A stretch of DNA of 64,000 nt from Candidatus Babelota bacterium (GTDB lineage Bacteria > Babelota > Babeliae > Babelales > JABDEC01), in the NCBI GenBank assembly GCA_013286795.1, contig JABDFA010000009.1, positions 6,023 to 70,022 on the forward strand, in the 5' to 3' direction. Below the pieces are notes generated by a model. The model was given only the letters and a program-made list of their open reading frames with translations, searched no databases and was not told the DNA's origin. Both the position numbers and the translations under genes were made by a program. Below are positions 1,025-60,346 of the stretch, piece after piece (within the stretch, counting starts at the first letter, position 1; each line of letters starts with the position of its first letter).

Positions 1025-1068
1025 AATTTTTATTTCTTAATTACTAGATCTAAAAAAGTTGATTTTCT

Positions 1069-1247
1069 CCGTTCGCCCTTAGCGACCTCTGAACGAGCGT
1101 TTACGCGAGTTGAAGAGGGAGTCGAATGGGTAATAATTTTTTAAGAATTTTATATTTTTGTATACAATATTTTTTTTAATTTAAGAAATCCATTCGACTC
1201 GGTCTTCGACTCCTTACGTCGCTCAGACCTCGCTCAGGACGAACGGG
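1069..1247. repeat. composite GC-rich inverted-repeat (MITE-like) element, copy 1 of 4
   Basis: Left arm 'ccgttcgcccttagcgacctctgaacgagcgtttacgcgagttgaagagggagtcgaatggg', AT-rich spacer, right arm 'ccattcgactc...tcgctcaggacgaacggg'. Same architecture at 32082, 39195 and 60154. Confidence 0.85.
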
Positions 1248-1398
1248 TTGGATGATTTTGCTCTATGAATATGTTATATTTTTATTAAAATAGTTATAAC
1301 ACATTTGCAAGAGATCTTAATCTAATTTTTTTAATCTATTGACTTGTATGATGTAAATAATTCAAAATATAAAAAGAGTTTTTTTAAAGGGAGTCTTA

Positions 1399-1902: not shown

Positions 1903-3525
1903 GTGAAGATTAAAATAGTTTTACTTTGTATAATTAGTGTTTTTAAAATATCTGATATTATAAGTGACTGTGAATGTTCTGTTCCCAATTTGAAATATAA
2001 GGGCAATAGGAGCATAGTAAAAATACGCGCAGCAGATTTTAATTATAATCCTGTTGTTGGAAATGCAGCTTACACAATTAATCAACCTGGAATTTATTAT
2101 CTTGAAGATTATGTAACAGCGTCTCCGGAAGTTGATAATCTTTCTTTAATTTATATAAATTCTAGTAATGTAAAATTGAATCTTAATTCTCTTGTTATTA
2201 CTCAAGATAGTAACCATTTTACAAAAAATATTAATGTTGTTGAAATAGCACCCAACGTTACTGATGTTAATATAACTAATGGAGTATTGCAAAATATTAA
2301 TGGTATCGGTGTAAAATCTAATTTAAATGTTAGTAATTTGTATGTATCTAATTTAGTTATAGATAAATTGACAAATTTGGGTATATATTTAAACAATGTA
2401 AGAAATGCAGTTTTATCACAATTCTGTGTAACAAATTGTAATGGATCTAATCCTAATTCTAGTGATGGGGCCGTATCTGGAAAATTACAGAACTGTTCTA
2501 ATATTCGCATATCAAATTCTTATTTTAATTCAAATATAGCGAATGACCTAAATACAGATTCTATAGGATTATTGATAGATAATTGCAGTAGTCTAAAACT
2601 AGAAAATTGTTCCTCTGTTCAGAATCAAGGTAAAAATGCTTATGGATTTGTTATTAGAAACAACTCATCTGCTTGTACTATAAATAATTGTTCCGTTTTG
2701 GGATGCCAGAGTAATAATGGAAGAGCTGTAGGATTCTTATTTGATAATTCATCTTCTAATTCTTTATTAGATTGTATTTCTGAATCTAATCAATCTGTAG
2801 GAGGAAATTGCGCCGGATTTAGTTTTGATGGACAAGCAGGTTACTATTTTTCAGCAAGGTTAAAAAATCTAAATATCATAAATTGTACATCAAAGAATAA
2901 TAAAGCTTTAGGTGCCTCTAACGATGCCTTTGGATTTTCAGGAAACCTTTTAGATTTTGCAATCTTTAGATCATGTAAAGCCATTTCTAATAGTTCAGCA
3001 GATGGCAATGTTTATGGATTTTATAGTGGTGCTGGAACCAATAACTATTTTGAGTCATGTTCAGCTCAAGACAATATTTCAGGTATAAATACAAATTCTG
3101 TTGTTTCAGGATTCGCTTTATTAAATGGTGAACAAAATAGTTCGATTAAAGAAAGCATATCTGTTAATAATTTTAGTTCATCTGGAGAATCCTATGGGAT
3201 ACGTTTAGGCTATAATACTGATACAAATACCCACGTCAATAATATCATTTATAAAAATTATATTGCTAATAATAAAGGCGGTTCTAAGCAGTATGGTTAT
3301 AGAGATTTTGCTTCTATTACTACAACTAACTTAATTGCTAATATTAGCTTTGGTCAGGGAAAAATAAATCCAAGTCCAATATCACAGCTTGTATTGACGA
3401 ATAATATGAATTATATGTTTACATTACCTTCAACTAAGGCTCCTGCTTATGTAGTTGTAGAAAGCAGCACTGGCGAAGTTGCTGAAATAAAAGTAAAACC
3501 GTTTGGTAATTTATCTGTATATTAA
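1903..3525 (+). CDS. secreted right-handed parallel beta-helix repeat protein (pectin-lyase-fold-like)
   Basis: GTG start and a signal-like N-terminus. Many ~22-25 aa N/S/C/G-rich rungs ('NCSNIRISNSYFNSN', 'NCSSLKLENCSSVQNQG', 'NNCSVLGCQSNNGRAVGF', 'FRSCKAISNSSADGNVYGF'). Confidence 0.6.
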   Translation: MKIKIVLLCIISVFKISDIISDCECSVPNLKYKGNRSIVKIRAADFNYNPVVGNAAYTINQPGIYYLEDYVTASPEVDNLSLIYINSSNVKLNLNSLVITQDSNHFTKNINVVEIAPNVTDVNITNGVLQNINGIGVKSNLNVSNLYVSNLVIDKLTNLGIYLNNVRNAVLSQFCVTNCNGSNPNSSDGAVSGKLQNCSNIRISNSYFNSNIANDLNTDSIGLLIDNCSSLKLENCSSVQNQGKNAYGFVIRNNSSACTINNCSVLGCQSNNGRAVGFLFDNSSSNSLLDCISESNQSVGGNCAGFSFDGQAGYYFSARLKNLNIINCTSKNNKALGASNDAFGFSGNLLDFAIFRSCKAISNSSADGNVYGFYSGAGTNNYFESCSAQDNISGINTNSVVSGFALLNGEQNSSIKESISVNNFSSSGESYGIRLGYNTDTNTHVNNIIYKNYIANNKGGSKQYGYRDFASITTTNLIANISFGQGKINPSPISQLVLTNNMNYMFTLPSTKAPAYVVVESSTGEVAEIKVKPFGNLSVY

Positions 3526-3530
3526 CCACA

Positions 3531-3560
3531 CCCCCGGTCATGGTGAGCCTGTCGAACCAT
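3531..3560. repeat. single GC-rich repeat arm ('cccccggtcatggtgagcctgtcgaaccat')
   Basis: Same module as 29377..29415 ('ccccccgcgctcgtggtgagcttgtcgaaccat'). It is the reverse of the 36564/46247 arms ('gctcgtatggttcg'). It contains the ATG used by ORF 3540. Confidence 0.8.
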
Positions 3561-4379
3561 TTTAAAAATGTAACTTTAAGCTTAGGGTTATTTTTAAGCT
3601 TTAATATTTTTTCAGAAAAATTTATTGATTTTATGAAAGCATCTGAACATTTTAATTCAGAGTGTTTATATAATAAGAATTGGAAAAATATACAAACTAC
3701 TTTTGATAACTTTATAGATAACATTACAGTTTCTAAATCTTCTAGAATCCCCAAAATTATTCATCAGATTTGGTTAGGTGGGCCATTCCCGGAAAGATAT
3801 AAAACTTTGCAAAATAGCTGGATAAAAAATCATCCTGATTGGACCTATATTTTGTGGACAGATGAATCAGTTGAAAGATTTGGTCTTAAAAATAAAGCGC
3901 TTTACAATAAAGCTAAAAACTTAGGTGAAAGATCAGATATAGTTCGCTATGAGGTTCTAGAAAGATTTGGCGGGTTATATATTGATACTGATTTTGAATG
4001 CATAAAATCTTTTGATATTTTACATCATATTTGCGATTTTTATACAAGTGTTGGTTATGGTCCGGATCCTGTTATTTTGTGTGGTCTTATTGGTTCTGTT
4101 CCAGCACACCCTATTCTTAAAGCTTGCATAGAAACTATGAAAAGAAAAGATTCTGAAAAAGACTCTTTTACTGATATCTTAAATAGAACTAGTATATTTC
4201 ATTTTACAAAATGCTTTCTTAATAATTATACTAAATCTTCAATAGCTTTTCCGGTAACATTTTTTTACCCTTTACCTGATTGTGCAAGAAATAGTAAATT
4301 AAAAAACTATTTAAAACCGGAAAGCTTTGCTGTGCATCATTGGCATCTTTCCTGGAATAATGGGAAAATAGGAGATTAA
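3540..4379 (+). CDS. GT32-family (Och1/Gly_transf_sug-like, DxD) glycosyltransferase
   Basis: 'IPKIIHQIWLGGPFPERYKTLQNSWIKNHPDWTYILWTDESV' and 'RSDIVRYEVLERFGGLYIDTDFECI' match the GT32 sugar-binding/DxD signature. Start is uncertain: the ATG at 3540 lies in a repeat, and the next ATG is at 3633. Confidence 0.75.
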   Translation: MVSLSNHFKNVTLSLGLFLSFNIFSEKFIDFMKASEHFNSECLYNKNWKNIQTTFDNFIDNITVSKSSRIPKIIHQIWLGGPFPERYKTLQNSWIKNHPDWTYILWTDESVERFGLKNKALYNKAKNLGERSDIVRYEVLERFGGLYIDTDFECIKSFDILHHICDFYTSVGYGPDPVILCGLIGSVPAHPILKACIETMKRKDSEKDSFTDILNRTSIFHFTKCFLNNYTKSSIAFPVTFFYPLPDCARNSKLKNYLKPESFAVHHWHLSWNNGKIGD

Positions 4380-4436
4380 GTGTGAAAAAGAATTTTGATC
4401 ATATATTAAATCTCTTTCTAAAAGTTGACTCTCTCT

Positions 4437-4586
4437 CCGTTCGCCCTGCCTGCCCGGCGAAGCTCAAAGAGCGAAGTCGGGAGTATCCGTCGAAGCCTTT
4501 GGCGAAGACGGATGTATCGAAGGGTGAATATACATTGCGTTCATGGATTCGATACGTTTGCTTCGCAAACACTCACCACGAACGGG
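4437..4586. repeat. GC-rich palindromic repeat element (chimeric, ~150 bp)
   Basis: Starts 'ccgttcgccctgcc...' and ends '...gttcatggattcgatacgtttgcttcgcaaacactcaccacgaacggg'. The right half closely matches the right half of the 48089..48207 element. Confidence 0.8.
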
Positions 4587-4618
4587 TTTTGAATTCTAGA
4601 AGAAATCTGATTTATATC

Positions 4619-5569
4619 ATGTTCTTTATTTTGTTTAAGATAATTGATGTTTACTCTTTTTGTCCATTAAATAGAGCTGATTTGGTTCTGTTTTCTTATG
4701 ATAGACCATTGCAACTTTATTCTTTCCTTGAGTCTGTAAAAAAGTATATTTTTGGCATTGAAGAAATACATGTAATTTACCGTGTAAGTAATAATGAATT
4801 TGAATCTGGTTATGATATAGTAAAAAAAGATTTTGCTGATGTGATTTTTCACAAACAATTAAAAGCAGATGATTTTAAACCATTAACTCTTGAATCAATT
4901 TTTAATAATGGTTCTAGATATATAATCTTTGGTGTAGATGACATAATAGTTAAAGATTATGTAAATTTAGGTACATGCATTAATTATCTTGAAAAATCTA
5001 ATTCTTATGGTTTTTACTTACGCATGGGCAAAAATATTGTTGAGTGTTATATGCATTTTAATGAACCTACACCAGTTCCAAAAATGAACCAAATCTCCCC
5101 CCCGGTCACCCTGAGCGAAGCCCGTAGGGCGCAGTCGAATGGGTCTCCTGAGTATTTATTAACTAATGTGTATAATGGAGTCTTTCAGTGGTCATTAAAT
5201 GATGGTAAAGGCGATTGGAAATACCCCAATAATCTTGATATGACAATTTACAGAAAGTCTGATCTTAAACAACTTTATAATTACAATTTCCAAAATCCTT
5301 CTGCATTAGAAGCAGTTTGGGCAGATAATGCAAATTATAACCAAAGAGGGTTATGCTTTGAACAATCAAAGATCGTTAATCTTCCATTAAATTTGGTCAT
5401 AGATGAAGCTCGAAATTTAGATAATCGCAATTCTTCTCTTTTTAATACCAAAGAATTACTTGATAAATTTATGTCAGGATTCAAAATCGATATAAATAAA
5501 TTCTATAGAATCAATAACCTAGCACCCCATGCTGCAATTGTTCCTACATTTATTCCAAGAACAATCTAA
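4619..5569 (+). CDS. GT-A-fold-like putative glycosyltransferase carrying an in-frame repeat insertion
   Basis: 'LVLFSYDRPLQLYSFLESV' (GT-A beta1-alpha1-like) and 'YIIFGVDDIIV' (DxD-like). I chose the ATG at 4619 because the track's GTG at 4382 reads through repeat 4437..4586. No family assigned. Confidence 0.45.
   Translation: MFFILFKIIDVYSFCPLNRADLVLFSYDRPLQLYSFLESVKKYIFGIEEIHVIYRVSNNEFESGYDIVKKDFADVIFHKQLKADDFKPLTLESIFNNGSRYIIFGVDDIIVKDYVNLGTCINYLEKSNSYGFYLRMGKNIVECYMHFNEPTPVPKMNQISPPVTLSEARRAQSNGSPEYLLTNVYNGVFQWSLNDGKGDWKYPNNLDMTIYRKSDLKQLYNYNFQNPSALEAVWADNANYNQRGLCFEQSKIVNLPLNLVIDEARNLDNRNSSLFNTKELLDKFMSGFKIDINKFYRINNLAPHAAIVPTFIPRTI
5097..5143. repeat. short GC-rich repeat module inserted in frame in CDS 4619..5569
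   Basis: 'ccccccggtcaccctgagcgaagcccgtagggcgcagtcgaatggg' encodes 'PPVTLSEARRAQSNG'. A near-identical module in yidD (53553..53594) encodes 'PVTLSEARSAKSNG'. Confidence 0.85.
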
Positions 5570-6573
5570 CTTTCTTCTTCTCTTTCTTTATCTTCTTTTT
5601 CCTCTTTAGATTCTGGTTTTGTTTCCGGCATTTGCTCTGCTGCATATTCTGATATTATTCTTGCTAAATCCATAGGACAAGAAGTTGATTCTTCAATTTT
5701 TTGTGCACGTAATTCTTTAGCTCTATCAAATAACCTTAATATAACAGGAGGAAGCTTTTTCTTATAATTTGGGTAATATTTAAGAATCTTATTTTCATCA
5801 AATTTTGCATTCTTGCACAGAAGAGTTCTTATTGTATTTATAAATTTATTTAGTGTTCTTTTCGAATAATTGAAATATGTTAAATCAATTATTATTTGTT
5901 CTAATGGTGTGAATTCTCCGACAATGTTGTAAGGGTTTCCTGTGCCCTTTGTGGTAAATCGTTCACTGGTTTCATCATCAACATATACTGCTAGACTGTT
6001 AACATCAGCTCCATGATTAATTAAATATTCAGCAATTTTTAAATTGGTTTTTGGTGAAACAATGGCCGTGTTAAGAGGTGTTAGGAGTTTCATGTCTCCA
6101 TAGGGTAGATTCCCATTAATATTTGCTTTATGTTCTTCTACTAACTCTTTTACAATATCCAATCTATTTAATTTAACTGCTGTACGTAATGTTTCGCCAA
6201 AATAAGTATCAGATCTTGCTCCTTTTCTTATTAACTGCATTAATAGAGAAAGTTTTTTTGTAGGATCTTTTTTTAGTCTATTATAGTGAGTAATGATATT
6301 CACCATTTCATTATCAAGTATTTGTTTATACAAAATAATAAGTGGCATTATATTAAGATTTAGCAACACATTATGAAACTCTCTTTTATTTTTAAGAAAA
6401 TTTTGTTTTAGTTTTTCAAGAACTTGATTTCCTGGAGCAATTTGCTTATTTTCGAGATAATTTTCTATAAAAGGTATGAGTTTATAAGGATTTTCTTCAG
6501 TACCAATACTTAATAATATATTAGAAAAGGAACCAAAAAGTATGGTAATTAAAGTGATTTTAAATTTATTCAT
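5566..6573 (-). CDS. ankyrin-repeat protein with signal-like N-terminus, F-box-like motif and acidic tail
   Basis: ANK units ('LRTAVKLNRLDIVKELVEEHKANING', 'TPLNTAIVSPKTNLKIAEYLINHGADVNS'). 'CPMDLARIISEY' lies near the C-terminus, followed by the tail 'KPESKEEKEDKEREEES'. Confidence 0.7.
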   Translation of the reverse strand: MNKFKITLITILFGSFSNILLSIGTEENPYKLIPFIENYLENKQIAPGNQVLEKLKQNFLKNKREFHNVLLNLNIMPLIILYKQILDNEMVNIITHYNRLKKDPTKKLSLLMQLIRKGARSDTYFGETLRTAVKLNRLDIVKELVEEHKANINGNLPYGDMKLLTPLNTAIVSPKTNLKIAEYLINHGADVNSLAVYVDDETSERFTTKGTGNPYNIVGEFTPLEQIIIDLTYFNYSKRTLNKFINTIRTLLCKNAKFDENKILKYYPNYKKKLPPVILRLFDRAKELRAQKIEESTSCPMDLARIISEYAAEQMPETKPESKEEKEDKEREEES

Positions 6574-6677
6574 TTACGGCCTCCATTTTTAAATAATATT
6601 CAGATATGAATATATTAGCTTATTTTATCAGTGAAATTCAATATTTTTTTAAAAAATATGATTTTACTCTGTAATTT

Positions 6678-7898
6678 TCAACGTCTTTTTATAATTGTTG
6701 ATTCAAGAGTTTGAATAATATCATTTTTATTTGCTTGTTTTGCGTACCATAAAGCATTGTGGCCGAAAGTATCTACTTTTTTAATATTAGCGCCATGCTC
6801 AATTAGCTGTTTAACTACAGAATTGTTGGTAAAAATTGTTGCATAAGTAAGCGGAGTTAGACCGTCTCTGTCAGTAGAATTTATATCTGAACCCTTGGAT
6901 ATTAAGAAATCTATGATAGAAGATAATCCAAACTTTATAGCTTGCATAAGTGGCGTACGACCCTTAAAATCTTTAGAATTTATATCAAACCCTGGAGATA
7001 AATATTTGTCTACAGAATAAGCGAAGCAAACAGCTCCAGGGTTTTTATATCTTTTTTTTAAATCAATATATTTTGGTGAATCTAATTTTGGATATTTAGG
7101 TTTTTCTTTTTTATAATATTCAGCCAAAAAATACATTAAAGATTCATCTGTTTTAAAATCACTTAAAGGGTTATTCATATTATATTTGTATAAAATTTTA
7201 CTTATAAATTTAAATTTATTGCCACACATTTCTAGAGCAGGGAACATGATTGCAAGATCCCATGTCATTGTTAAAAATGAATCATCATATATAAGATCCT
7301 GAAATTTTATATTTTGAAATAACCAAGAATAATAGGTTCGCAAATGAGTTGCTAAAAAATTTGATCTGAAGCCTCTGTTTTTGATAACATCGTCGCTATA
7401 TGCAGCTGCAAAACCGGTTCCATATTCTATTGGATCACATTCATATTGTCCATATGTTAACCAGACGTTAGAATCTTGATATACATCATTTAAATATTTT
7501 AAAACATTCTCATCTTTTAAACTATCATCTCCATCTAACATAACTACAATTTCATCATGATCACACAAGCTTATTTCTGACCATAAATTTCCCATTGCTC
7601 CACGTCTTACTCTAATTTTTCTTAAAGTTACTAAATCTCCTACATTTTTTTCTTTTATATAAGCTTCGACCAGTTCTGATGTTTGTGGATCATCATTGTA
7701 TACTGCCCCATCTGCAATGTATATTATTCTAAATTTATTTTTATCATAATTTTGATTTATAGCAGAATCTAAGTTTTTCTTATAAAATGAAGCATTTTTA
7801 TAAGATGGTATTATTATTGCAAATCTTTTATCTTCACTTAACACAGTTGAAATTATGTTTAATATAATAATAGTGAGTAGTAAATTTAATTTTATCAT
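6678..7898 (-). CDS. GT2-family glycosyltransferase fused to C-terminal ankyrin repeats
   Basis: N-terminal anchor 'LNLLLTIIILNIISTVL'. GT2 start 'FAIIIPSYKNASFYKKNLDSAINQNY' and DxD 'VVMLDGDDSL'. C-terminal ANK units 'GRTPLMQAIKFGLSSIIDFLISKGSDINSTDRDGLTPLTYA...LIEHGANI'. Confidence 0.75.
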   Translation of the reverse strand: MIKLNLLLTIIILNIISTVLSEDKRFAIIIPSYKNASFYKKNLDSAINQNYDKNKFRIIYIADGAVYNDDPQTSELVEAYIKEKNVGDLVTLRKIRVRRGAMGNLWSEISLCDHDEIVVMLDGDDSLKDENVLKYLNDVYQDSNVWLTYGQYECDPIEYGTGFAAAYSDDVIKNRGFRSNFLATHLRTYYSWLFQNIKFQDLIYDDSFLTMTWDLAIMFPALEMCGNKFKFISKILYKYNMNNPLSDFKTDESLMYFLAEYYKKEKPKYPKLDSPKYIDLKKRYKNPGAVCFAYSVDKYLSPGFDINSKDFKGRTPLMQAIKFGLSSIIDFLISKGSDINSTDRDGLTPLTYATIFTNNSVVKQLIEHGANIKKVDTFGHNALWYAKQANKNDIIQTLESTIIKRR

Positions 7899-7978
7899 GA
7901 ATACCCTTTCTTTTTGATTTGTATAAGAAGTATTATAGATTAAAGTTTATTTTGAAATAATTTAAAAAAAGGTGGGTC

Positions 7979-8773
7979 GTGAAGTCAATAATAAAAAAAA
8001 TATTTTTGCTTATTATTTTAAATCTAAATTGTTTTTTATTAGCCCAAGACAAATTTAAAGTGGGGCTTCTTATAGTTGCCACAGGAAGATATATTAATTT
8101 TGTTCCAGGTTTGATTGACTCCGCAAATAAACATTTTCTTAAGGATCACAAAGTTACTTATTTTGTTTTTACTGATGATACAAGTTTTATGTATACTGAT
8201 AGTGTAAATATTTACCAAGAAAAATTGACATGGCCCTTTGCTACTATGATGCGCTTGGAAACCTATTATAAAAATAGAACCTATTTTAATGATATGGATT
8301 ATGTTTTTGCATTAGACGCAGATATGCTTTTTGTTGATGATGTTGGTAATGAAATATTATCAGAAAGAGTTGCGACCTTGCATCCAGGTTTTTATTTAAA
8401 AAAAGATTTGCCCTATGAACGAAATATTATTTCAAAAGCTTGTGTTAGTCAAAAAGAAGATAATTACTATTTTGCAGGGGGTTTTTTTGGTGGCATAAAA
8501 CAAGAGTTTATTAATTTAGTAAAAACTAATTCAGAAAATATTCAAGATGATTTGAAAAGAGGCTATATTGCTGAGTGGCATGATGAAAGTCACAATAATC
8601 GTTATTTTATAGATAATCCTCCAACAAAAATTCTTTTACCATCTTATTGTTACCCGGAAGATGCGGCATTACCCCATCTTTATGACTCGTATAAAAATAT
8701 TTTAAACATGCCAAGAAAGTTAATTGCCTTGGCAAAAAAACACTCTGAATATCAGTTACCAAATAAAAAATAG
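7979..8773 (+). CDS. GT6-family (histo-blood-group ABO / alpha-1,3-Gal(NAc)-transferase-like) glycosyltransferase
   Basis: Collinear with remembered human GTA motifs: 'HKVTYFVFTD', 'DYVFALDADMLF' (DxD), 'TLHPGFY', 'YYFAGGFFGG', 'AEWHDESHNNRY', 'PTKILLPSYCY'. GTG start after RBS 'aaaggtggg'. Signal-anchor 'IFLLIILNLNCFLLA'. Confidence 0.85.
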   Translation: MKSIIKKIFLLIILNLNCFLLAQDKFKVGLLIVATGRYINFVPGLIDSANKHFLKDHKVTYFVFTDDTSFMYTDSVNIYQEKLTWPFATMMRLETYYKNRTYFNDMDYVFALDADMLFVDDVGNEILSERVATLHPGFYLKKDLPYERNIISKACVSQKEDNYYFAGGFFGGIKQEFINLVKTNSENIQDDLKRGYIAEWHDESHNNRYFIDNPPTKILLPSYCYPEDAALPHLYDSYKNILNMPRKLIALAKKHSEYQLPNKK

Positions 8774-11075: not shown

Positions 11076-14960
<3,885 letters not shown>

Positions 14961-14965
14961 TTAAA

Positions 14966-22665
<7,700 letters not shown>

Positions 22666-29198: not shown

Positions 29199-29376
29199 TT
29201 AACTCCTTAAATTTATATATTCTTAACTTCTTTGTTCAGTGTTGCAAAATTTTTTATACAAGATCAACGTTTTATTAGACTTTATACCTAATTAGATTCG
29301 TCGATTTCTCAGACAAGCTTTTAGGCATTACCAAGTTCTAGGCAAGTAAGTGTACTAGCGTATACAAAGAGTTTTT

Positions 29377-29415
29377 CCCCCCGCGCTCGTGGTGAGCTTG
29401 TCGAACCATACGAGC
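29377..29415. repeat. single GC-rich repeat arm
   Basis: 'ccccccgcgctcgtggtgagcttgtcgaaccatacgagc'. Related to 3531..3560 and the inverse of arms in 36564..36677. Confidence 0.8.
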
Positions 29416-32022: not shown

Positions 32023-32081
32023 AGCTACAACTTAAGTGTTTTAAAATAATAATTAATTATATAAAAAGAGCTTTATCCAAT

Positions 32082-32330
32082 CCGTTCGCCCTGAGCGACC
32101 TCTGAGCGAGCGTTTACGCGAGTCGATGAGGGAGTCGAATGGGTAAAAATTTTCTTAAAAATTTTATATTTTTTTGCATGAAATAATTTTTTTAAATATT
32201 CAATTATAATAATATTTAAAAACTTAATCTTTTTTTTAGAATACAGGAAACCCGTTCGACTCATTCTTCAACTCTCCTTCGACTCGCTTTGCTCGCTCAG
32301 GATCGTTCAGAATTCGCTCAGGGCGAACGG
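32082..32330. repeat. composite GC-rich inverted-repeat (MITE-like) element, copy 2 of 4
   Basis: 17-bp perfect termini 'ccgttcgccctgagcga' / 'tcgctcagggcgaacgg'. GC-rich arms flank an AT-rich spacer whose 5' part is conserved with copies 1 and 3. Lies between convergent genes. Confidence 0.9.
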
Positions 32331-32362
32331 AGAAAGGGTAACTTTTAAACTTAGACTGATAA

Positions 32363-36550: not shown

Positions 36551-36563
36551 TAGTTTCCTTAAT

Positions 36564-36677
36564 GCTCGTATGGTTCGTCCTTCGATTTCGTGCTACGCAC
36601 TTCACTCAGGATGACCGGGGGAGGGAGGAAAAAAGTCCAGTCATGCTGAGCTTGTCGAAGCATCACCACGAGCGCGC
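36564..36677. repeat. GC-rich repeat pair filling the ogt-grpE spacer
   Basis: 'gctcgtatggttcgtccttcgatttcgtgctacgcacttcactcaggatgaccgggggaggg' followed by 'gtcatgctgagcttgtcgaagcatcaccacgagcgcgc'. Confidence 0.85.
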
Positions 36678-36685
36678 TTTAACGT

Positions 36686-37174: not shown

Positions 37175-37274
37175 ATTTATTTACCCCTGGTTGACTGAAT
37201 TTGTTTTATTAACACTTTTTTAATATTATATCATGTAATGTAAACATTAGAAGATAGTAAAATTTAAATTTTAT

Positions 37275-37308
37275 CCTTCGACAGGCTCAGGATGACCGGG
37301 AGAGGGGA
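37275..37308. repeat. single GC-rich repeat arm immediately upstream of an RBS
   Basis: 'ccttcgacaggctcaggatgaccgggagagggga' matches 'cactcaggatgaccgggggaggg' at 36603..36625. RBS 'aaaaggag' and the ATG at 37324 follow. Confidence 0.8.
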
Positions 37309-37323
37309 TTAAAAGGAGATTTA

Positions 37324-39016: not shown

Positions 39017-39194
39017 TTAATCTTAATTATAAAATCGCACAAAACTATTCAAATTGTCAATATAGATATGATTTATATAAAAAAACCCTAAAGATTAGGT
39101 TTTTTTGGAGGGGATAAATAAACGTGAGGGTGATTTCTGCTAGAATTGGACATAATTTGGATTTGTTAACTATTAATAAGTATTTTTTTCTATT

Positions 39195-39408
39195 CCGTTC
39201 GCCCTGAGCGACCTCTGAGCGAGCGTTTACGCGAGTCGAATGAGGGAGTCGAATGGGTAAGAATTTTTTAAGAAGTTAATATTTTTATAAATTTCTTTTT
39301 TAAAATATTAAATTAAGAATAATAACAACCCATTCGACTCATTCTTCAACTCTCCTTCAGCTCGCTTGGCTCGCGAAGGATCGTTCAGAATTCGCTCAGG
39401 GCGAACGG
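39195..39408. repeat. composite GC-rich inverted-repeat (MITE-like) element, copy 3 of 4
   Basis: Near-identical to copy 2 in both arms and has the same 17-bp termini. Lies just downstream of ssb. Confidence 0.9.
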
Positions 39409-39457
39409 AAATAAGAAGTCTAATATTATTTTTCTTATAAGAAACCTTAGAATTTAA

Positions 39458-40999: not shown

Positions 41000-42481
41000 T
41001 TACTCTTCTGGTATAATTATTTTGCTGATTTCATTTTCCAATATAGTTGTTCTTTTTTTCGAATTATAAACTAATTCTCCATTTTTGAGTTGTATTAATT
41101 TTGAAATTGTATGTATGTTTTCTTCAATAGTTTGAATGCAAACATATTGATCATCTATTAGCTTCCATATTTTTATTTTATTGTCAGACCCAAAAGAAGC
41201 TAATGAACCATCTTGTAATTGAATTACTTGATTGACCCAATATTCATGTTCTTGCAAAGTTTGGAAACAATAATATTTGCCATCTTTTATTTTCCATATT
41301 TTTATAGTTTGCCAGGCACAAGTGATCAGTGATCCATCATCTAACTGAATTAAATTTGAAACATCATGAAGCATGTGATCATTTACAATTTGAAACCAAC
41401 TATATTGATTATCTTTTAATTTTAATATTTTTATTGTGTTATTGTGTGAAGAAAAAGCAAAAACTATAGAATTATCTGATAATGGAATTAATTTTCCAAT
41501 TTTGTGGGGATATTCAATTGTTTGATAAAGAACATATTTATCACCTATTAATTTCCATATTTTTATTTTTTTATCTTCTGAAACAGAGATTAGTAGTTTA
41601 TTTGATAACTCTATTAATTTAAGAATTCTATTAACATGGTCAGTTTGGAGTATTTGATGAAGATAATAATGATCATTTCTTAGCCGCCATATTTTTATTG
41701 TATGATTTTCTTGCGAATGAACTAAAGAACCATCTTGTAATTGTATTAGATTGTAAGCACTATTGTATATTTTTTTACAACAACTAAACAAACAACACAT
41801 AAATGGATTACCTAAAATAGAACAAATGTTTCTATTAAGAGTTTGTAGAAGTGTTACTACATCTTCCTTGATAGATAATATTCTTATTGTTCCATCTATA
41901 CTGAGATAAGCATAGTTATTATTATTTAATTTAATTAGATTAAATAGAGGATATTTTTCAGTAATGGTAGCAGGAAAACACAGTAAAGTGCAACATACGA
42001 CATTTCTTATTACTGTATTTTCATGTTCAAGGCTATCTATACCTTGATTATACTTCTTGGTTTTTTTTATTAATTTCCACATAGAGAAACCATATCGACT
42101 GTTGGCTATAAATGAATCATTGCTTAAAGGGATGATTTCACTAATAAAATCTAAATTTTGGAGTAAAGAAAAAGTTTTATCTAAGCCATGAGTATAATCG
42201 TAATCTACAACAATTTGGCTTATTTCTGGTATTAAATATGAGTTTAACTTTTTTTTTATAAACTGGTTTATTAAATCTATCTTTGTGAGAGTTTTTTTCT
42301 TGTCTTTTTTTTGTAGCTCTAATACTTCTTTCTCATCAGTATCTGTATCGATTTTTACTTCTTGTTCATACTTGCTATCTGGTTCAGATGGTAAAATTGA
42401 ATATGACTCATGGTCATGCATTGCTGAAATGTTGAAGGTGAATGTTGTGAGTAAAAATATTTTTCTAAATAACTTGTTCAT
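41000..42481 (-). CDS. WD40-repeat protein with signal-like N-terminus and N-proximal F-box-like motif
   Basis: WD-type strand ends 'HTIKIWRL', 'KKIKIWKL', 'NTIKILKL', 'QTIKIWKI', 'NKIKIWKL'. 'LIPEISQIVVDYDY' near the N-terminus. Cys clusters 'VVCCTLLCF' and 'FMCCLFSCCKK'. Confidence 0.75.
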   Translation of the reverse strand: MNKLFRKIFLLTTFTFNISAMHDHESYSILPSEPDSKYEQEVKIDTDTDEKEVLELQKKDKKKTLTKIDLINQFIKKKLNSYLIPEISQIVVDYDYTHGLDKTFSLLQNLDFISEIIPLSNDSFIANSRYGFSMWKLIKKTKKYNQGIDSLEHENTVIRNVVCCTLLCFPATITEKYPLFNLIKLNNNNYAYLSIDGTIRILSIKEDVVTLLQTLNRNICSILGNPFMCCLFSCCKKIYNSAYNLIQLQDGSLVHSQENHTIKIWRLRNDHYYLHQILQTDHVNRILKLIELSNKLLISVSEDKKIKIWKLIGDKYVLYQTIEYPHKIGKLIPLSDNSIVFAFSSHNNTIKILKLKDNQYSWFQIVNDHMLHDVSNLIQLDDGSLITCAWQTIKIWKIKDGKYYCFQTLQEHEYWVNQVIQLQDGSLASFGSDNKIKIWKLIDDQYVCIQTIEENIHTISKLIQLKNGELVYNSKKRTTILENEISKIIIPEE

Positions 42482-42489
42482 TTGGTTTA

Positions 42490-44004
42490 TTACTCTTCTG
42501 GTATAATTATTTTACTGACCTCATTTGTCCATATTTTGCTTATATCGTCTAATGAGGAAGAAACCAATTCTCCATTCTTTAATTGAATCAATTTATGAAT
42601 TCCTATCCTACGGCCGTCAAAAGTCTGATCTAAAACATATTGGCCATCTACAATTTTCCATATTTTTATTGTGGAATCACTTGAATAGGATGCAAGTGAA
42701 TTGTCTTGTAATTGGATTATACCATTAACCCAATCTGTAATTCCACTTGTACGATGTTTCAAAGTTTGGGAACAAGAATATTTACCATCTTTTAAATTCC
42801 ATATTTTTATATCTTGCCAAGAGCATGAAACTAGAGATCCATCTGGTAATTGGGTTAAATTTAAAACAAAATTTGTATGATCGTTTAAAATTTGAACACA
42901 ATTAAATTGGCCATTTTTTGATTTTAAGATTCTTATTGTGCTATCATCTGCATAAGCAAAAAATACATCTTTTGCTTCGGTTTTTAGTGAAATTAACTTT
43001 CTAATGAGATCCGTGTGTTCAATTGTTTGATAAAGACAATATTGATCATCTACTAAATTCCATATTTTTATTTTTTTATCAAATGAAACAGATATTAACA
43101 TTTGATTAGGTAATTCTAATAAACTAAAAATTTCTTCAGTATGACCAGTCGGTAGAGTTTGATGAAGATAATATTTATCATCTCTTAGTCGCCATACTTT
43201 TATTGTATGATCTTCTTTTATGGAATGTACAAGAGTTCCATCTTGAAGTTGGGTTAAGTTTGTAGCTGTATCGGTTCCTTTTTTGGATATACGTTTTCGT
43301 AATTTGGGAATACAACTTCCACAGTTCACCAATGCATTAAAGGGATTATTTAAATAATAACATAAATTTTTGTTAAGAGTTTGAAGATTAGTATAAGTTT
43401 CATTGTGAATTGCGCCTATACGTATTGTTCCGTTTGTTTTAAGATATGCAAATAAGCCGTTATTTAATTTGATTAAATTATAGTCTTTACTATAAGGGAA
43501 ACAACATAACAAACAACACAAAATTGAATAACTCAGACGTATTGTTGCATCACAGTCATTGTACCATTCTCGATTTACTTTTTCGTATTTACCCGTTTTT
43601 TTTCGTAATTTCCATATTCTATAATCATCCATATATGTATCATATTGTATAAATGAATTATTATTGAGAGGTATTATTTCAGAGGTAAAATTCAAAGTTT
43701 GAGATAAATAATATGTTTTATCTAAGCCATGAGTGTAGTCATAGTCTACAACAATTTGGCTTAATTCCGGTATTAAATGTGAGTTTAACTTTTTTTTTAT
43801 AAACTGGTCTATTAAATCTATCTTTGTGAGAGTTTTTTTCTTGTCTTTTTTTGATAATTCTAACGTTTCTTTTTCATCAACATCTATGTCGATTTTTACA
43901 TCTTGTTCAGATGGTAAAATTGAATATGACTCATGGTCATGCATTGCTGAAATGTTAAATGGTAAAATTGTTAGTAAAAATATTTTTTTAAATAACTTGT
44001 TCAC
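42490..44004 (-). CDS. WD40-repeat protein, tandem paralog of 41000..42481
   Basis: The N-terminal ~90 aa are nearly identical to the neighbour ('FNISAMHDHESYSILPSE', 'KKDKKKTLTKIDLI', 'LIPELSQIVVDYDYTHGLDKT'). WD ends 'HTIKVWRL', 'KKIKIWNL', 'QDIKIWNL', 'STIKIWKI'. Cys cluster 'ILCCLLCCF'. Confidence 0.75.
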   Translation of the reverse strand: MNKLFKKIFLLTILPFNISAMHDHESYSILPSEQDVKIDIDVDEKETLELSKKDKKKTLTKIDLIDQFIKKKLNSHLIPELSQIVVDYDYTHGLDKTYYLSQTLNFTSEIIPLNNNSFIQYDTYMDDYRIWKLRKKTGKYEKVNREWYNDCDATIRLSYSILCCLLCCFPYSKDYNLIKLNNGLFAYLKTNGTIRIGAIHNETYTNLQTLNKNLCYYLNNPFNALVNCGSCIPKLRKRISKKGTDTATNLTQLQDGTLVHSIKEDHTIKVWRLRDDKYYLHQTLPTGHTEEIFSLLELPNQMLISVSFDKKIKIWNLVDDQYCLYQTIEHTDLIRKLISLKTEAKDVFFAYADDSTIRILKSKNGQFNCVQILNDHTNFVLNLTQLPDGSLVSCSWQDIKIWNLKDGKYSCSQTLKHRTSGITDWVNGIIQLQDNSLASYSSDSTIKIWKIVDGQYVLDQTFDGRRIGIHKLIQLKNGELVSSSLDDISKIWTNEVSKIIIPEE

Positions 44005-46246: not shown

Positions 46247-46341
46247 GCTCGTATGGTTCGACAAGCTTCCAGCCTACGCTTTAGTCTTCGCTAAAGCTAT
46301 GCCGGACAAGAAAGCTACGGCGGACAGGCACCATGAGCGGG
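46247..46341. repeat. GC-rich repeat element upstream of argS
   Basis: 'gctcgtatggttcgacaagcttccagcctacgctttagtcttcgctaaagctatgccggacaag...ggcaccatgagcggg'. Shares 'gctcgtatggttcg' with 36564 and 'cttcgctaaagct' with the tRNA-spacer repeats. Confidence 0.8.
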
Positions 46342-48022: not shown

Positions 48023-48088
48023 TAAGTTAAGATTAACTTGATAATTAATTTTATTGTTGCGGGTCGTTAACAAAAATTATAAAAAAAT

Positions 48089-48207
48089 CCGTTCGTGGTG
48101 AGTAGCCCGTTAGGGCGTATCGAATCCATGAATGCATATTAAGACTTTTATTTGAGTTCATGGTTCGATAAATTTTTGCTTACGCAAAAACACTCACCAC
48201 GAACGGG
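48089..48207. repeat. long palindromic GC-rich element with 15-bp perfect terminal inverted repeats
   Basis: 'ccgttcgtggtgagt' pairs with 'actcaccacgaacgg'. Inner pairing 'cgaatccatgaa' / 'ttcatggttcg'. Lies between argS and tsf. Confidence 0.85.
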
Positions 48208-48279
48208 CTTTTAAAAGTTTTTTGTTCTGGAATTTGTGTGAAGTTGATATTTAATGATTAGGTATATACAAAGGATAAT

Positions 48280-50296: not shown

Positions 50297-50519
50297 TACT
50301 TCGCTAAAGCTTCGTATGGCAGGCCAGTTTTTTCGAGGAATTAATTTTATTAATTCAGTTGACATTGTTTTTAAAAGCGAAGTATGCCCTTCGTAGCTCG
50401 TAAGAGCGAAGTAGGGCTATAACAATAAGAGTATGACTTAGCTTCTACTTCGCTAAAGCTTCGTCGGACAAGTCGTATGGCAGCCTGCACTTCGTAGCTC
50501 TGCAAAGAGCTAAGTAGGG
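50297..50519. repeat. cluster of GC-rich palindromic repeats filling the tRNA-Lys / tRNA-Leu spacer
   Basis: 'tacttcgctaaagcttcgtatggcaggcc', 'gcgaagtatgcccttcgtagctcgtaagagcgaagtagggc', 'ctacttcgctaaagcttcgtcggacaagtcgtatggcagcctgcacttcgtagctctgcaaagagctaagtaggg'. 'tacttcgc' and 'gcgaagta' pair. Confidence 0.8.
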
Positions 50520-53193: not shown

Positions 53194-53526
53194 ATGTCAG
53201 AAATTTCTAGGCTAATTTCTTCGTTTAAGAAAAAAGAAGTCGATCAGATATTTAAGGCTTCTAAAAAAAGAATTAAAAAACAGGGGCTGGAAATTATTCT
53301 AGCCCCTAAAATTTTAGATTTTGGTAGAATTTTAGTTATTACATCAAGAAAAACTGGCAGCGCACCTAAACGTAATAAAGTTCGTCGTAGGTTAAAATCT
53401 ATTTTTTATGAAGATAAATTGTTTAGTCTAGGTTATGATTGTGTTATTGTTGTTAGACAAAACTTTGCTATAAATCTAAGTTTTCTTGAACTCAAAGAAA
53501 TTTTAAATTCTGTGTTTCAATTATGA
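53194..53526 (+). CDS. rnpA: ribonuclease P protein component
   Basis: 110-aa basic protein directly after rpmH. 'TSRKTGSAPKRNKVRRRLKSIF' matches the RNR-motif region. Confidence 0.8.
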   Translation: MSEISRLISSFKKKEVDQIFKASKKRIKKQGLEIILAPKILDFGRILVITSRKTGSAPKRNKVRRRLKSIFYEDKLFSLGYDCVIVVRQNFAINLSFLELKEILNSVFQL

Positions 53527-53804
53527 ATTTAATAAAACAACTTTTACCCTTTCCGGTCACCCTGAGCGAAGCACGTAGTGCGAAGTCGAATGGGTTTACT
53601 ACCTTTATAAAAAAACTTTTACTTGATATAATTCTAGTCTTAAGACCCTTATTTGCACCCCAAGGTGCATGTAAATATTTGGTTTCTTGCACAGATTTTG
53701 CAAAAATTGAACTTGAAGAAAAAACCTTTATTTACGCTTTTCTTTCTATTTTAAAACGAGTTTTATCTTGTCATCCCTTTTCAAAAACTAGTAATATCCA
53801 GTAA
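53523..53804 (+). CDS. yidD: membrane protein insertion efficiency factor YidD with repeat-derived N-terminal insertion
   Basis: 'CKYLVSCTDFAKIELEE...LKRVLSCHPF' matches the YidD core (C.F.P.CS.Y......RCHP). Residues 9..25 ('PFPVTLSEARSAKSNGF') are encoded by repeat 53553..53594. Confidence 0.8.
   Translation: MNLIKQLLPFPVTLSEARSAKSNGFTTFIKKLLLDIILVLRPLFAPQGACKYLVSCTDFAKIELEEKTFIYAFLSILKRVLSCHPFSKTSNIQ
53553..53594. repeat. 42-bp GC-rich repeat module inserted in frame in yidD
   Basis: 'ccggtcaccctgagcgaagcacgtagtgcgaagtcgaatggg'. Sister copy at 5097..5143. Confidence 0.85.
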
Positions 53805-58867: not shown

Positions 58868-59614
58868 TCATACCACAAACTCCATTTCTTCATCTTCTTC
58901 AATTTCTTCAGGTTTAGGCTTACTTTGTTCCCCAACAACATAATCTGTTATTATATCACTAATCCCTTTTTCAGTAATATTTGTTTGTTTTATTGTATCC
59001 CAGATAGTTAACCTTATTTTTGCCGGCCAATTTACTAAAATTTCTTTAACTTCTTTTCTTCTTTCAGAAAGTGTATACATATTGGCTTGATCTATTGCTA
59101 TTTGAGTGCAACTTTTATTATTTCTATCTTTTATATTGGCATCTGCCCCTGCTAATAATAGAGCTTCTACTATTTTTGGATATGCACTTTCAATTGCAGA
59201 CATGAGTGCAGTATTGCCATTGTGATTTTTTGCATCTATTTTTGCTTTGGCATTAATCAAAAGCATAACTGCGTCATAATTATCTTGTATACATGCTCTC
59301 ATTAGAGGCGTAAAACCATCATAAATTTCTTCCTTGCCTACATTTGCTCCACTTTTTATTAAAAACTCAATAATTTTAATGTCTGCTTCAGCATTAAATG
59401 CATGTTCAAGAACAGGTATACCAATTTCATCATCTTGGCAATTTACATCAGCTCCCATAAATACTGCTGTTTGAGCCATAATTAAATTATTGGTTTTTAC
59501 TGCTTTTAGAAGCATAATTTTCGCTATATCTTGTACTTTATTATCCATTGAATAAATAAAAGATAAGTGAGTGAAAATAAGTGTGCTTATAAGAATGAGT
59601 TTGATTTTATTCAT
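58868..59614 (-). CDS. ankyrin-repeat protein with signal peptide, weak F-box-like motif and acidic tail
   Basis: 'GFTPLMRACIQDNYDAVMLLINAKAKIDAKNHNGNTALMSAIESAYPKIVEALLLAGADANIKD'. 'GISDIITDYVVG', then 'PEEIEEDEEMEF'. Confidence 0.8.
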   Translation of the reverse strand: MNKIKLILISTLIFTHLSFIYSMDNKVQDIAKIMLLKAVKTNNLIMAQTAVFMGADVNCQDDEIGIPVLEHAFNAEADIKIIEFLIKSGANVGKEEIYDGFTPLMRACIQDNYDAVMLLINAKAKIDAKNHNGNTALMSAIESAYPKIVEALLLAGADANIKDRNNKSCTQIAIDQANMYTLSERRKEVKEILVNWPAKIRLTIWDTIKQTNITEKGISDIITDYVVGEQSKPKPEEIEEDEEMEFVV

Positions 59615-60083: not shown

Positions 60084-60153
60084 GATTTAGAATTAATCAA
60101 ATATTTTTAGATCAATCTAGTTTTTTTGGTTATTTAATAATTATTTATTATTT

Positions 60154-60346
60154 CCGTTCGCCCTGAGCGACCTCTGAACGAGCTTTTAAGCGAGTTGAAG
60201 AGGGAGTCGAATGGGTAAAAAATTATTTTTTTAAATATATTAAATTACAGCAATAACTAAAGTTTTATATTATTGTATAAAAAAATATTCCTTCGACTCT
60301 ATCTTCGGCTCCTTACGTCGCTCAGATATCGCTCAGGACGAACGGG
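60154..60346. repeat. composite GC-rich inverted-repeat (MITE-like) element, copy 4 of 4
   Basis: Left arm 'ccgttcgccctgagcgacctctgaacgagcttttaagcgagttgaagagggagtcgaatggg'. Right arm '...ccttacgtcgctcagatatcgctcaggacgaacggg' resembles copy 1. Lies between convergent genes. Confidence 0.9.

Follow-up and report, generated by a model that had tools for sequence, protein, structure and literature searches.

A small palindromic repeat lies in frame within yidD and a glycosyltransferase-like gene of a Babeliales bacterium

Dependentiae are a deep-branching phylum of obligate intracellular bacteria. We analysed a 64,000-nucleotide stretch of a Candidatus Babelota genome (GenBank assembly GCA_013286795.1, contig JABDFA010000009.1, positions 6,023 to 70,022; hereafter the window), in which a short GC-rich repeat module occurs inside two unrelated protein-coding genes. 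The best named threonyl-tRNA synthetase matches are from Candidatus Babeliales/Dependentiae, at 65–70% identity, and the ankyrin, WD40 and collagen-repeat genes of the window fit this placement. One of the two host genes encodes a protein resembling glycosyltransferases (GT) of the GT-A fold, hereafter the GT-like protein, and the other is yidD, which follows rnpA. Coordinates of these genes, of the repeat copies within them and of the other repeats discussed below are given in Table 1.

The shared module is 43 nt long and GC-rich. Its two in-gene copies are identical at 40 of 43 positions by BLAST, and an 18-mer within them (GGTCACCCTGAGCGAAGC) occurs exactly at 5104 and 53555, both on the forward strand, with a copy bearing three mismatches at 36599 on the reverse strand; shuffled sequence gave no match to this 18-mer. 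A preliminary description of the window had reported one 42–47 bp module in frame in both proteins. The presence, places and frame of the repeat are confirmed, as is the statement that both reading frames stay open. Translated in the frame of its host without a stop, the copy in the GT-like gene reads PVTLSEARRAQSNG (residues 162–175) and the copy in yidD reads PVTLSEARSAKSNG (residues 11–24), and neither open reading frame (ORF) is interrupted by its module. The length given for the insert in the GT-like protein did not stand, as the segment added there comprises 75 nt, or 25 amino acids (PPVTLSEARRAQSNGSPEYLLTNVY). Three bases differ between the two modules, and two of them form a compensatory pair in the inner stem described below (GCAC/GTGC in one copy and GCCC/GGGC in the other), a change that turns Ser into Arg.

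The GT-like product, for which Pfam holds no family, was modelled with AlphaFold2 (AF2) on 16 sequences, giving a predicted local distance difference test (pLDDT) score of 86.3 and a predicted template modelling (pTM) score of 0.87. The best Foldseek matches of this model are GnT-I (1foa), SpsA (1h7q) and TarP (6h4m), with E-values of 5e-7 to 2e-6 and template modelling (TM) scores of 0.44–0.47. D107 and D108, the DD of a DxD motif, are invariant in the family, and the window protein keeps all family-invariant residues. Residues 161–185 face an alignment gap in all 15 homologues compared (43–87% identity). The nearest of these, 81–87% identical, is encoded at locus L001 of a sister genome in synteny with the window (JGI sample 3300020829), where the DNA presents a clean 75-nt empty site. 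Compared with an intergenic copy in the sister contig L124, the insert is 88.6% identical over 70 nt, so the 75-nt insertion is one element rather than a module plus unrelated filler. Within the model, the inserted residues have pLDDT of 56–69 and form a predicted loop between strands E156–160 and E188–192, a low-confidence excursion from an otherwise confident fold. Against the sister orthologue, the ratio of nonsynonymous to synonymous substitution rates (dN/dS) is 0.10, with a dS of 0.43.

The yidD product matches Pfam PF01809 with 35.3 bits (cut-off 27) over residues 31–89 only, placing the repeat N-terminal to the YidD domain. An exact-sequence look-up of the 93-aa protein found no record. 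In L234, from a more distant relative, the start of yidD runs uninterrupted as ATGAATTTTATAAAACAATTTTTACTTGAT (MNFIKQFLLD). A 19-nt stretch (TTWATAAAAMAAYTTTTAC) stands on either side of the element in the window, the two copies lying 75 nt apart, and the score of this duplication was reached in 8 of 2000 shuffles. Together, insert and duplication add exactly 25 codons without a stop. There is no in-frame ATG, GTG or TTG in the window between the repeat and the first conserved Cys, so the sole canonical start of yidD is the ATG that overlaps the rnpA stop. The yidD core has a dN/dS of 0.08 against the sister genome (dS 0.28), and rnpA has a dN/dS of 0.17. Both host genes evolve under purifying selection. 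The yidD module is 100% identical to three sister-genome copies (L124, L187 and L211).

These results bear on several points raised in the preliminary description, which had named two ways in which the insertions could prove illusory: orthologues without the repeat might carry the same residues, or the true start of yidD might lie further downstream and the GT-like ORF be a pseudogene. Neither check overturned the reading of insertion. The inserted residues are missing from all 15 homologues of the GT-like protein and from the sister DNA, and yidD of L234 is uninterrupted; no canonical start codon separates the yidD repeat from the conserved core; and a pseudogene is ruled out for the GT-like ORF by its dN/dS of 0.10, its intact invariant residues and its confident GT-A-fold model. 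The label GT-A-like is likewise upheld by the model and its Foldseek matches to GT-A glycosyltransferases, the expectation of a surface loop agrees with the modelled position of the GT copy between two strands, and the claim that the yidD repeat lies upstream of the conserved core agrees with a Pfam match that begins at residue 31.

Copies of the repeat share a common plan. Each unit begins with a C-rich leader, followed by a head (C/T/G)GTC and a predicted outer stem (5' side A(T/C)CCT-GA-G, 3' side C-GA-A(T)GG(A/G)T) comprising roughly five Watson-Crick pairs, a possible tandem of two G.A pairs and a single G-C pair. The long form carries a 4-bp inner hairpin, GCNC-GTA-GNGC. Babeliales copies end in an AT-rich tail of about 10–25 nt (T.T.CT..GTAT.T.T), bringing the whole unit to about 56–75 nt. 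Modules in the window run from the outer stem through TGAGY, CT or the inner hairpin, and RTCGAA (sometimes with one bulged T) to the outer-stem complement. Their outer stems covary (ATGG/CCAT, ACCC/GGGT, ATGC/GCAT, ATCC/GGAT and CGTTCGTGG/CCATGAACG), and the inner hairpins do likewise.

Hairpin pairs were counted directly, since an alignment of mixed long, short and nested copies was too heterogeneous for a covariance model. Among 81 unique long-form copies from the metagenome and genome matches listed, the free pair of the inner stem is G-C in 56, C-G in 12, A-T in 10 and G-T in three, and is never unpaired; shuffled pairing of the same position gave 53.7 paired copies on average and never more than 64 in 10,000 trials. 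The neighbouring third free base is evenly A, G, C or T. As inner-stem pairing is kept while the amino acid changes, the constraint acts on the nucleic-acid hairpin and not on the peptide. Resemblance to a hammerhead, k-turn, group II domain V, tRNA T-arm, integron attC or restriction site was considered, and no match was seen on inspection. Rfam, searched with the whole window at the gathering threshold and with two repeat regions at E up to 10, returned only two tRNAs and chance miRNA-like matches.

The reading frames of the module are also constrained. TGA (in CCTGAGC) closes one forward frame and TAG (in CGTAG) closes another, and the sole open forward frame reads (P)V(T/I)LSEAR.A.S..; on the reverse strand, the module has two open frames and the whole 75-nt insert of the GT-like gene has one. 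With a single stop-free forward frame, every surviving forward in-gene copy must encode the same peptide, and no selection on the peptide is needed to explain why it is shared. Two further in-gene copies conform to this expectation. A GH3 hydrolase gene of the sister genome (L211, 12090–12917, reverse strand) contains an in-frame module 100% identical to the yidD copy (..KKIFPIPVTLSEARSAKSNGYSMY..), near the junction of the N- and C-terminal GH3 domains. A homologue of the capsule-biosynthesis protein Cap5F on a rumen metagenome contig of 43% GC (Ga0310696_10006978, L121) contains an in-frame module (..NVILSEARSAESKD..) in an interdomain linker, and S. aureus Cap5F aligns only with residues 1–202 and 245–415 of this homologue. 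The next gene on the same contig, UDP-GlcNAc 2-epimerase-like, has a further module copy just upstream of its start.

Most copies in the window are intergenic. The window has about 30% GC, with short islands of about 60% GC, and a structural scan found 16 modules. A seventeenth regex match, an AT-rich stretch at 42090–42147 within a WD40 gene, was set aside as a chance hit. The modules fall into about 12 clusters, nine of them wholly intergenic, two wholly genic and one lying across a start codon. By the ORF-based gene list, 91% of the 64-kb window covered by this census is coding and 9% intergenic, and the repeat clusters account for 27% of the intergenic bases. Modules are found singly, nested or as inverted doublets giving long predicted hairpins, and face both orientations relative to neighbouring genes. 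The composite at 36562–36684 recurs in part at the sister yidD site and also in L211. The copy at 60.1 kb is missing from the sister contig L002, and this 290-nt element shows no clear duplication despite the empty site there.

The cluster that lies across a start codon affects a Gly_transf_sug gene. Thirty-three nucleotides of this module are missing from the sister locus L001, whose Gly_transf_sug gene starts at an overlapping TGATG. The only start left to the window gene is the ATG within the module at 3540, and its first seven codons (MVSLSNH) come from the module. The insertion destroyed the TGATG overlap start and donated a new start codon.

Table 1. Host genes, inserted elements and other repeat copies in the window (positions are those of the whole stretch).
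Feature	Position	Strand	Details
Host gene 1, GT-A-fold glycosyltransferase-like CDS, 316 aa	4619..5569	+	ORF; 590 homologues
In-frame insertion in host gene 1, 75 nt, residues 161-185	5099..5173	+	C-rich leader, 37-nt predicted hairpin module, AT-rich tail
Shared 43-nt module, GT copy	5102..5144	+	Inner hairpin GCCC-GTA-GGGC
rnpA, translationally coupled to yidD	53194..53526	+	Pfam PF00825
Host gene 2, yidD, 93 aa	53523..53804	+	Pfam PF01809; start ATG overlaps rnpA stop (ATGA)
Left copy of 19-nt target duplication, TTAATAAAACAACTTTTAC	53529..53547	+	Present once at the empty site of L234
Inserted element in yidD: leader, module, short tail	53548..53603	+	Missing from empty site L234
Shared 43-nt module, yidD copy	53553..53595	+	Inner hairpin GCAC-GTA-GTGC
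Right copy of 19-nt target duplication, TTTATAAAAAAACTTTTAC	53604..53622	+	Flank comparison and L234
Short-form module ATGG-TGAGCCTGTCGAA-CCAT between two genes	3522..3560	+	Holds ATG 3540 of Gly_transf_sug gene 3540-4379
Intergenic repeat cluster directly upstream of GT-like gene	4423..4587		Differs in content from sister L001
Intergenic composite of nested and inverted modules	1045..1255		Same family at 32058-32342, 39171-39417 and 60130-60346
Intergenic short-form module, GTGG-TGAGCTTGTCGAA-CCAT	29365..29409	+	Repeat scan
Intergenic composite	36562..36684		Long-form module on - strand, 36578-36611 (GTGC-GTA-GCAC), and short form on + strand, 36643-36663
Intergenic short-form module, ATCC-TGAGCCTGTCGAA-GGAT	37273..37311	-	Repeat scan
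Intergenic doublet of inverted modules, 8-9 bp outer stems	48068..48227		Long hairpin resembling a REPIN or MITE (terms explained in the text)

The repeat is not confined to the window. Near-identical modules occupy non-orthologous sites of the sister genomes despite dS values of 0.28–0.43, and presence or absence of modules differs between the window and the sister genome at the L001 and L002 sites. Among the matches listed, the 18-mer is found in more than 115 genomes of many phyla, mostly as GGTCACCCTGAGCGAAGCGAAGGGTC; this genome scan is dominated by high-GC genomes, with no Babeliales genome among the matches listed. The long form, CCTGAGCGAAGC-N-CGTAG-N-GCG-N-AGTCGAA, is found in more than 116 metagenome contigs among the matches listed, with GC contents of 0.29–0.69. 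Full-text literature searches with the repeat strings, the translated peptides and 'Dependentiae' plus 'palindromic' returned nothing relevant.

We consider it very probable that a small non-autonomous repeat, similar to repetitive extragenic palindromic (REP) sequences, has inserted independently at the two sites, both in coding DNA of Babeliales (Dependentiae), and the interpretation of in-frame repeat insertion offered in the preliminary description is supported. Under this proposal, new copies would arise by copy-and-paste with the help of a trans-acting enzyme encoded outside the window. Some would leave long target duplications, and those falling within genes would usually be lost. A survivor would need an added length divisible by three (75 nt at both sites), alignment of the module's sole stop-free forward frame with that of the host, and a permissive place, here a GT-A loop between two beta strands and a tail ahead of the YidD domain. 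We infer that the inserts are selfish rather than adaptive.

Several observations weigh against this reading. No target duplication is detectable in the flanks of the GT insert. No transposase, REP-associated tyrosine transposase (RAYT) or reverse transcriptase turned up among the approximately 50 window ORFs, in 10 further ORFs of L124 and L187 (Pfam), or in the Pfam annotations of L001 and L002. Thermodynamic folding of the module was no stabler than that of shuffles (z = −0.35 and +0.25), and the minimum-free-energy structures differ from the covariation-supported fold; support for the putative hairpin comes from covariation. Translation of the inserts is predicted from the sequence, with expected peptides KMNQISPPVTLSEAR and, for yidD, MNLIKQLLPFPVTLSEAR. 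Finally, the sister rnpA-yidD junction (L002, 1380–1786) holds a different repeat cluster of about 190 nt, which breaks the frame from the upstream ATG. There, a 66-aa repeat ORF overlaps both the rnpA stop and the yidD start, and yidD begins at an ATG within the repeat end CGAATGGG, showing that the N-terminal extension of YidD is dispensable in the sister genome. This sister site, at which both the left duplicate and the 3' junction can still be recognised, was either hit before the lineages split and then remodelled, or is a hot spot.

The sister junction also favours the alternative that the yidD copy is non-coding, a 5' untranslated or intercistronic element, with YidD starting downstream at a non-canonical codon or the gene tolerating loss. 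YidD homologues of just 66 and 72 aa lack the N-terminal extension, residues 1–23 have pLDDT below 50 in an AF2 model that is poor overall and unusable (pLDDT 51.5), and REPs at the N-termini of ORFs have in many cases been judged unlikely to be codogenic (Di Nocera et al., PMC3733652). Against this stand the lack of a canonical start codon between repeat and core in the window, the ATG at 53523, which retains the ATGA overlap with rnpA as in the uninterrupted site, and the exact addition of 25 stop-free codons. A rare non-canonical start is conceivable, but a yidD start downstream of the insert is unlikely in the window, and we regard a non-coding yidD copy as somewhat unlikely overall.

The strong conservation of module sequence and structure across phyla, together with the complete identity of the yidD copy to three non-orthologous sister copies at the dS values given above, could instead indicate a domesticated cis-element that is useful as a hairpin, for example in mRNA stability, translational pausing, protein binding or DNA structure, and REPs have been reported as RNA elements in other bacteria (PMC3733652). 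However, the sister orthologue and all other homologues of the GT-like protein function without the module, copies stand in both orientations relative to neighbouring genes, and recognition by a mobilising enzyme would explain the conservation equally well. We find domestication distinctly improbable. The same 14-residue peptide frame in four unrelated proteins might also be taken for a functional motif under protein-level selection, for instance a short linear motif or a targeting signal. This is scarcely credible, given that stops in the other two forward frames force the peptide frame, most copies are intergenic, substitutions keep base pairing and alter amino acids (S to R, K to Q), and nucleotide identity is far above what a conserved peptide would lead one to expect. 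The idea that the residues are ancestral and were deleted in relatives, or that the inserts are metagenome assembly artefacts of a contig whose repeats can mislead assemblers, is largely refuted and carries almost no weight, as the segment is missing from all 15 homologues at 43–87% identity, both flanks run colinear with the sister genome's version of the same gene, where misassembly would join unrelated flanks, and the target duplication, of which the empty site in L234 has a single copy, is the signature of insertion.

Insertion of a small REP-like repeat in both genes can be compared with repeats known from other bacteria. Two superfamilies of REPs, tagged GTAG and CGTC, have been defined, and intragenic REPs are listed in several species (Di Nocera, De Gregorio & Rocco 2013, BMC Genomics 14:522, PMC3733652). 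CGTC repeats have an unpaired CGTC head (with TGTC and CCTC variants), a stem of 8–9 bp that nearly always starts A-T, a loop of 4–5 nt and a short unpaired tail with the consensus CCA; they include Neisseria dRS3 and the Rickettsia palindromic elements (RPEs) RPE-4 and RPE-6, and are listed from five phyla, Dependentiae not among them (PMC3733652). No dedicated transposase is known for them, and it has been asked whether they are still mobile (PMC3733652). The module resembles CGTC repeats in its presence in many phyla, including intracellular bacteria, in its inverted dimers and clusters, in having documented intragenic copies and in having no known dedicated transposase.

Compared with the text definition rather than with a family consensus, the repeat fits the CGTC-type architecture, short of being a proven member. 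Heads among the 81 long-form copies are TGTC in 50, CGTC in 19, GGTC in seven and CCTC in three, in line with a CGTC-type head, and the GGTC, GTTC or GCTC heads of the window are variants outside the published list. AT follows the head in 71 of the 81 copies, and the outermost A would pair with T in 28 of 66 AT-type copies and face C in the other 38. The long-form stem, ATCCT-GA-G / C-GA-AGGAT, would comprise six Watson-Crick pairs and two possible G.A pairs; the in-gene copies of the window start AC...GT. In place of the published 4–5 nt loop, the long form has AA-GCNC-GTA-GNGC-GNAG, an extra 4-bp hairpin with a GTA loop, and short forms in the window (3540, 29389, 36643 and 37273) show a loop of 5 nt, C-CTG-T. 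Among the tails of the 81 copies, CCA is the most frequent (24, followed by CTG in 21 and CCC in 14). Babeliales copies differ from the definition in their GGTC or GTTC heads, A-C or G-T stem start, bulged T and AT-rich tail instead of CCA.

[quoted passage not shown] As RPEs are described there and in PMC3733652 (after Ogata et al. 2000, Science 290:347), they share with the module hairpin repeats in an AT-rich obligate intracellular host, in-frame positions at permissive sites of unrelated housekeeping genes that stay functional, one conserved encoded peptide per family, and no linked transposase. As with RPEs, the repeat is found in frame in intact protein-coding genes that have orthologues without it. 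On the same descriptions, to which the likeness is limited, the two differ in host (Dependentiae, not Alphaproteobacteria), in unit length (about 56–75 nt as against about 100–150 bp for RPE-1), in that most copies here are intergenic, with only two or three of 12 clusters touching coding DNA, and in the long target duplications seen here. The preliminary description had likened the repeat to RPEs while assigning it to a different repeat family and host. The in-frame parallel and the different host hold, and its Babeliales host sets the repeat apart from RPE-1 to RPE-10 of Rickettsia; it is nevertheless probably not a wholly different family, given its likeness to the CGTC superfamily that includes RPE-4 and RPE-6.

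Short GC-rich palindromes that occur as singletons and inverted doublets (as at 48068–48227) and abound between genes are also typical of REPs and REP doublets forming hairpins (REPINs) mobilised by RAYTs, which are HUH tyrosine transposases of the IS200/IS605 type. However, the 5' GTAG (GT[A/G]G) head is absent from the module, where GTAG is confined to the inner loop together with the first base of the stem, no RAYT was seen in the ORFs scanned, and four copies have duplications of 19–36 nt; a GTAG/RAYT identity was rejected on the (C/T/G)GTC head and the flanking target duplications. Bacterial MITEs (ERIC, BOX, Coxiella QMITE1, Anabaena; PMC10969869, PMC5896051) resemble the module in being small and non-autonomous, with an open frame and in-frame fusions, whereas the single-module unit lacks terminal inverted repeats, and its duplications are long and variable instead of short and fixed in length. 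With a C-rich leader and an AT-rich tail in place of terminal inverted repeats, identity with a MITE bearing such repeats was rejected, although the inverted doublets at 48068–48227 do look MITE-like. Mycobacterial interspersed repetitive units (MIRUs), described by Supply and colleagues in 1997, are reportedly tandem intercistronic repeats of 40–100 bp with small ORFs overlapping the flanking genes. The sister rnpA-yidD site is similar in that its 66-aa intercistronic repeat ORF overlaps both neighbours, but the sequences are unrelated and MIRUs are tandem units, not hairpin modules. In-frame repeat coding is thus a known phenomenon; what is new is the Dependentiae lineage, with long, variable target duplications as the unexpected part.

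Four copies have long direct target duplications: 19 nt in yidD, 36 nt in L187 (about 3080–3190), 29 nt in L122 (about 960–1070, an organism of 55% GC) and 27 nt in L088 (Acidobacteriota metagenome-assembled genome OY969886). In L088, it is the 5' end of a tRNA gene that is duplicated, which restores an intact tRNA downstream of the insert. Only the yidD duplication has been noted with an empty site (L234), and most module copies have no flanking duplication. In the short-form genome set, long flanking duplications were found at 2 of 107 positions compared to 1 of 321 control positions. As this excess is not significant, the claim of duplication is carried by the four individually clear cases. 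One of the two short-form cases (L065) is a tandem array and was rejected as a target duplication, leaving L088. The 5' flanks of the Babeliales long-form copies (window 5090–5101 and 53541–53552; L124, L187 and L211) have a T-run ending in A or C (CTTTTAC, CATTTAACC, TTTTTAAACC, AAAATTTTC and CAAATCTC), and the L211 flank resembles the left duplicate of yidD over about 20 nt. The T-runs may reflect a target preference or chance in AT-rich DNA.

Transposition by HUH enzymes (RAYT/IS200) makes no target duplication, and classical MITEs make short ones of fixed length. Long variable duplications would thus point to another mechanism. A quite unlikely proposal is that the CGTC-type hairpin module may move by a mechanism unlike those of RAYT/HUH elements and MITEs that duplicates 19–36 nt of target. 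Candidate routes would be hairpin capture, either at staggered nicks or at flaps displaced on the lagging strand of the replication fork, or a process in which a transcribed copy undergoes target-primed reverse transcription, in the manner of a bacterial short interspersed element (SINE). If this were true, the long flanking repeats would permit precise excision, making in-gene insertions reversible.

Other features of the window were also recorded. A second, unrelated GC-rich repeat family (CTTCGCTAAAGCT..GGACAAG..CGTATGGCAG) is found at 46282–46330, 50299–50325 and 50447–50490, with sites upstream of argS and within the tRNA-Lys to tRNA-Leu spacer. Ankyrin-repeat genes at 83–1024 and 58868–59614 are missing from the syntenic sister contigs; the repeat cluster at 1045–1255 adjoins the former, a case of gene gain or loss beside repeats. 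The glycosyltransferase gene cluster at 3540–8773 includes a GT2-ankyrin fusion (6678–7898) and a gene (7979–8773) strongly matching glycosyltransferase family 6, to which the ABO and alpha-Gal transferases belong, with an E-value of 2e-49. Three tandem paralogues of about 1285 aa each (11076–22665, reverse strand) have very long collagen triple-helix repeats, with a 9-nt periodicity and a local GC content of 46% compared to 30% for the genome, and FG-GAP-like C-terminal repeats. Two tandem WD40 beta-propeller paralogues (41000–44004, reverse strand) share blocks of 77–91% identity, suggesting recent duplication.

In-frame palindromic repeats, known in Rickettsia, several Proteobacteria and Verrucomicrobia, now extend to Dependentiae. 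Within 64 kb, one repeat family appears to have remodelled proteins in three ways, as an internal loop, as an N-terminal extension and by supplying a start codon. That the module is nearly identical across phyla and at non-orthologous sites deserves attention, and the insertion polymorphism between sister genomes, together with the long duplications, offers a concrete footprint of how CGTC-type REPs may move.

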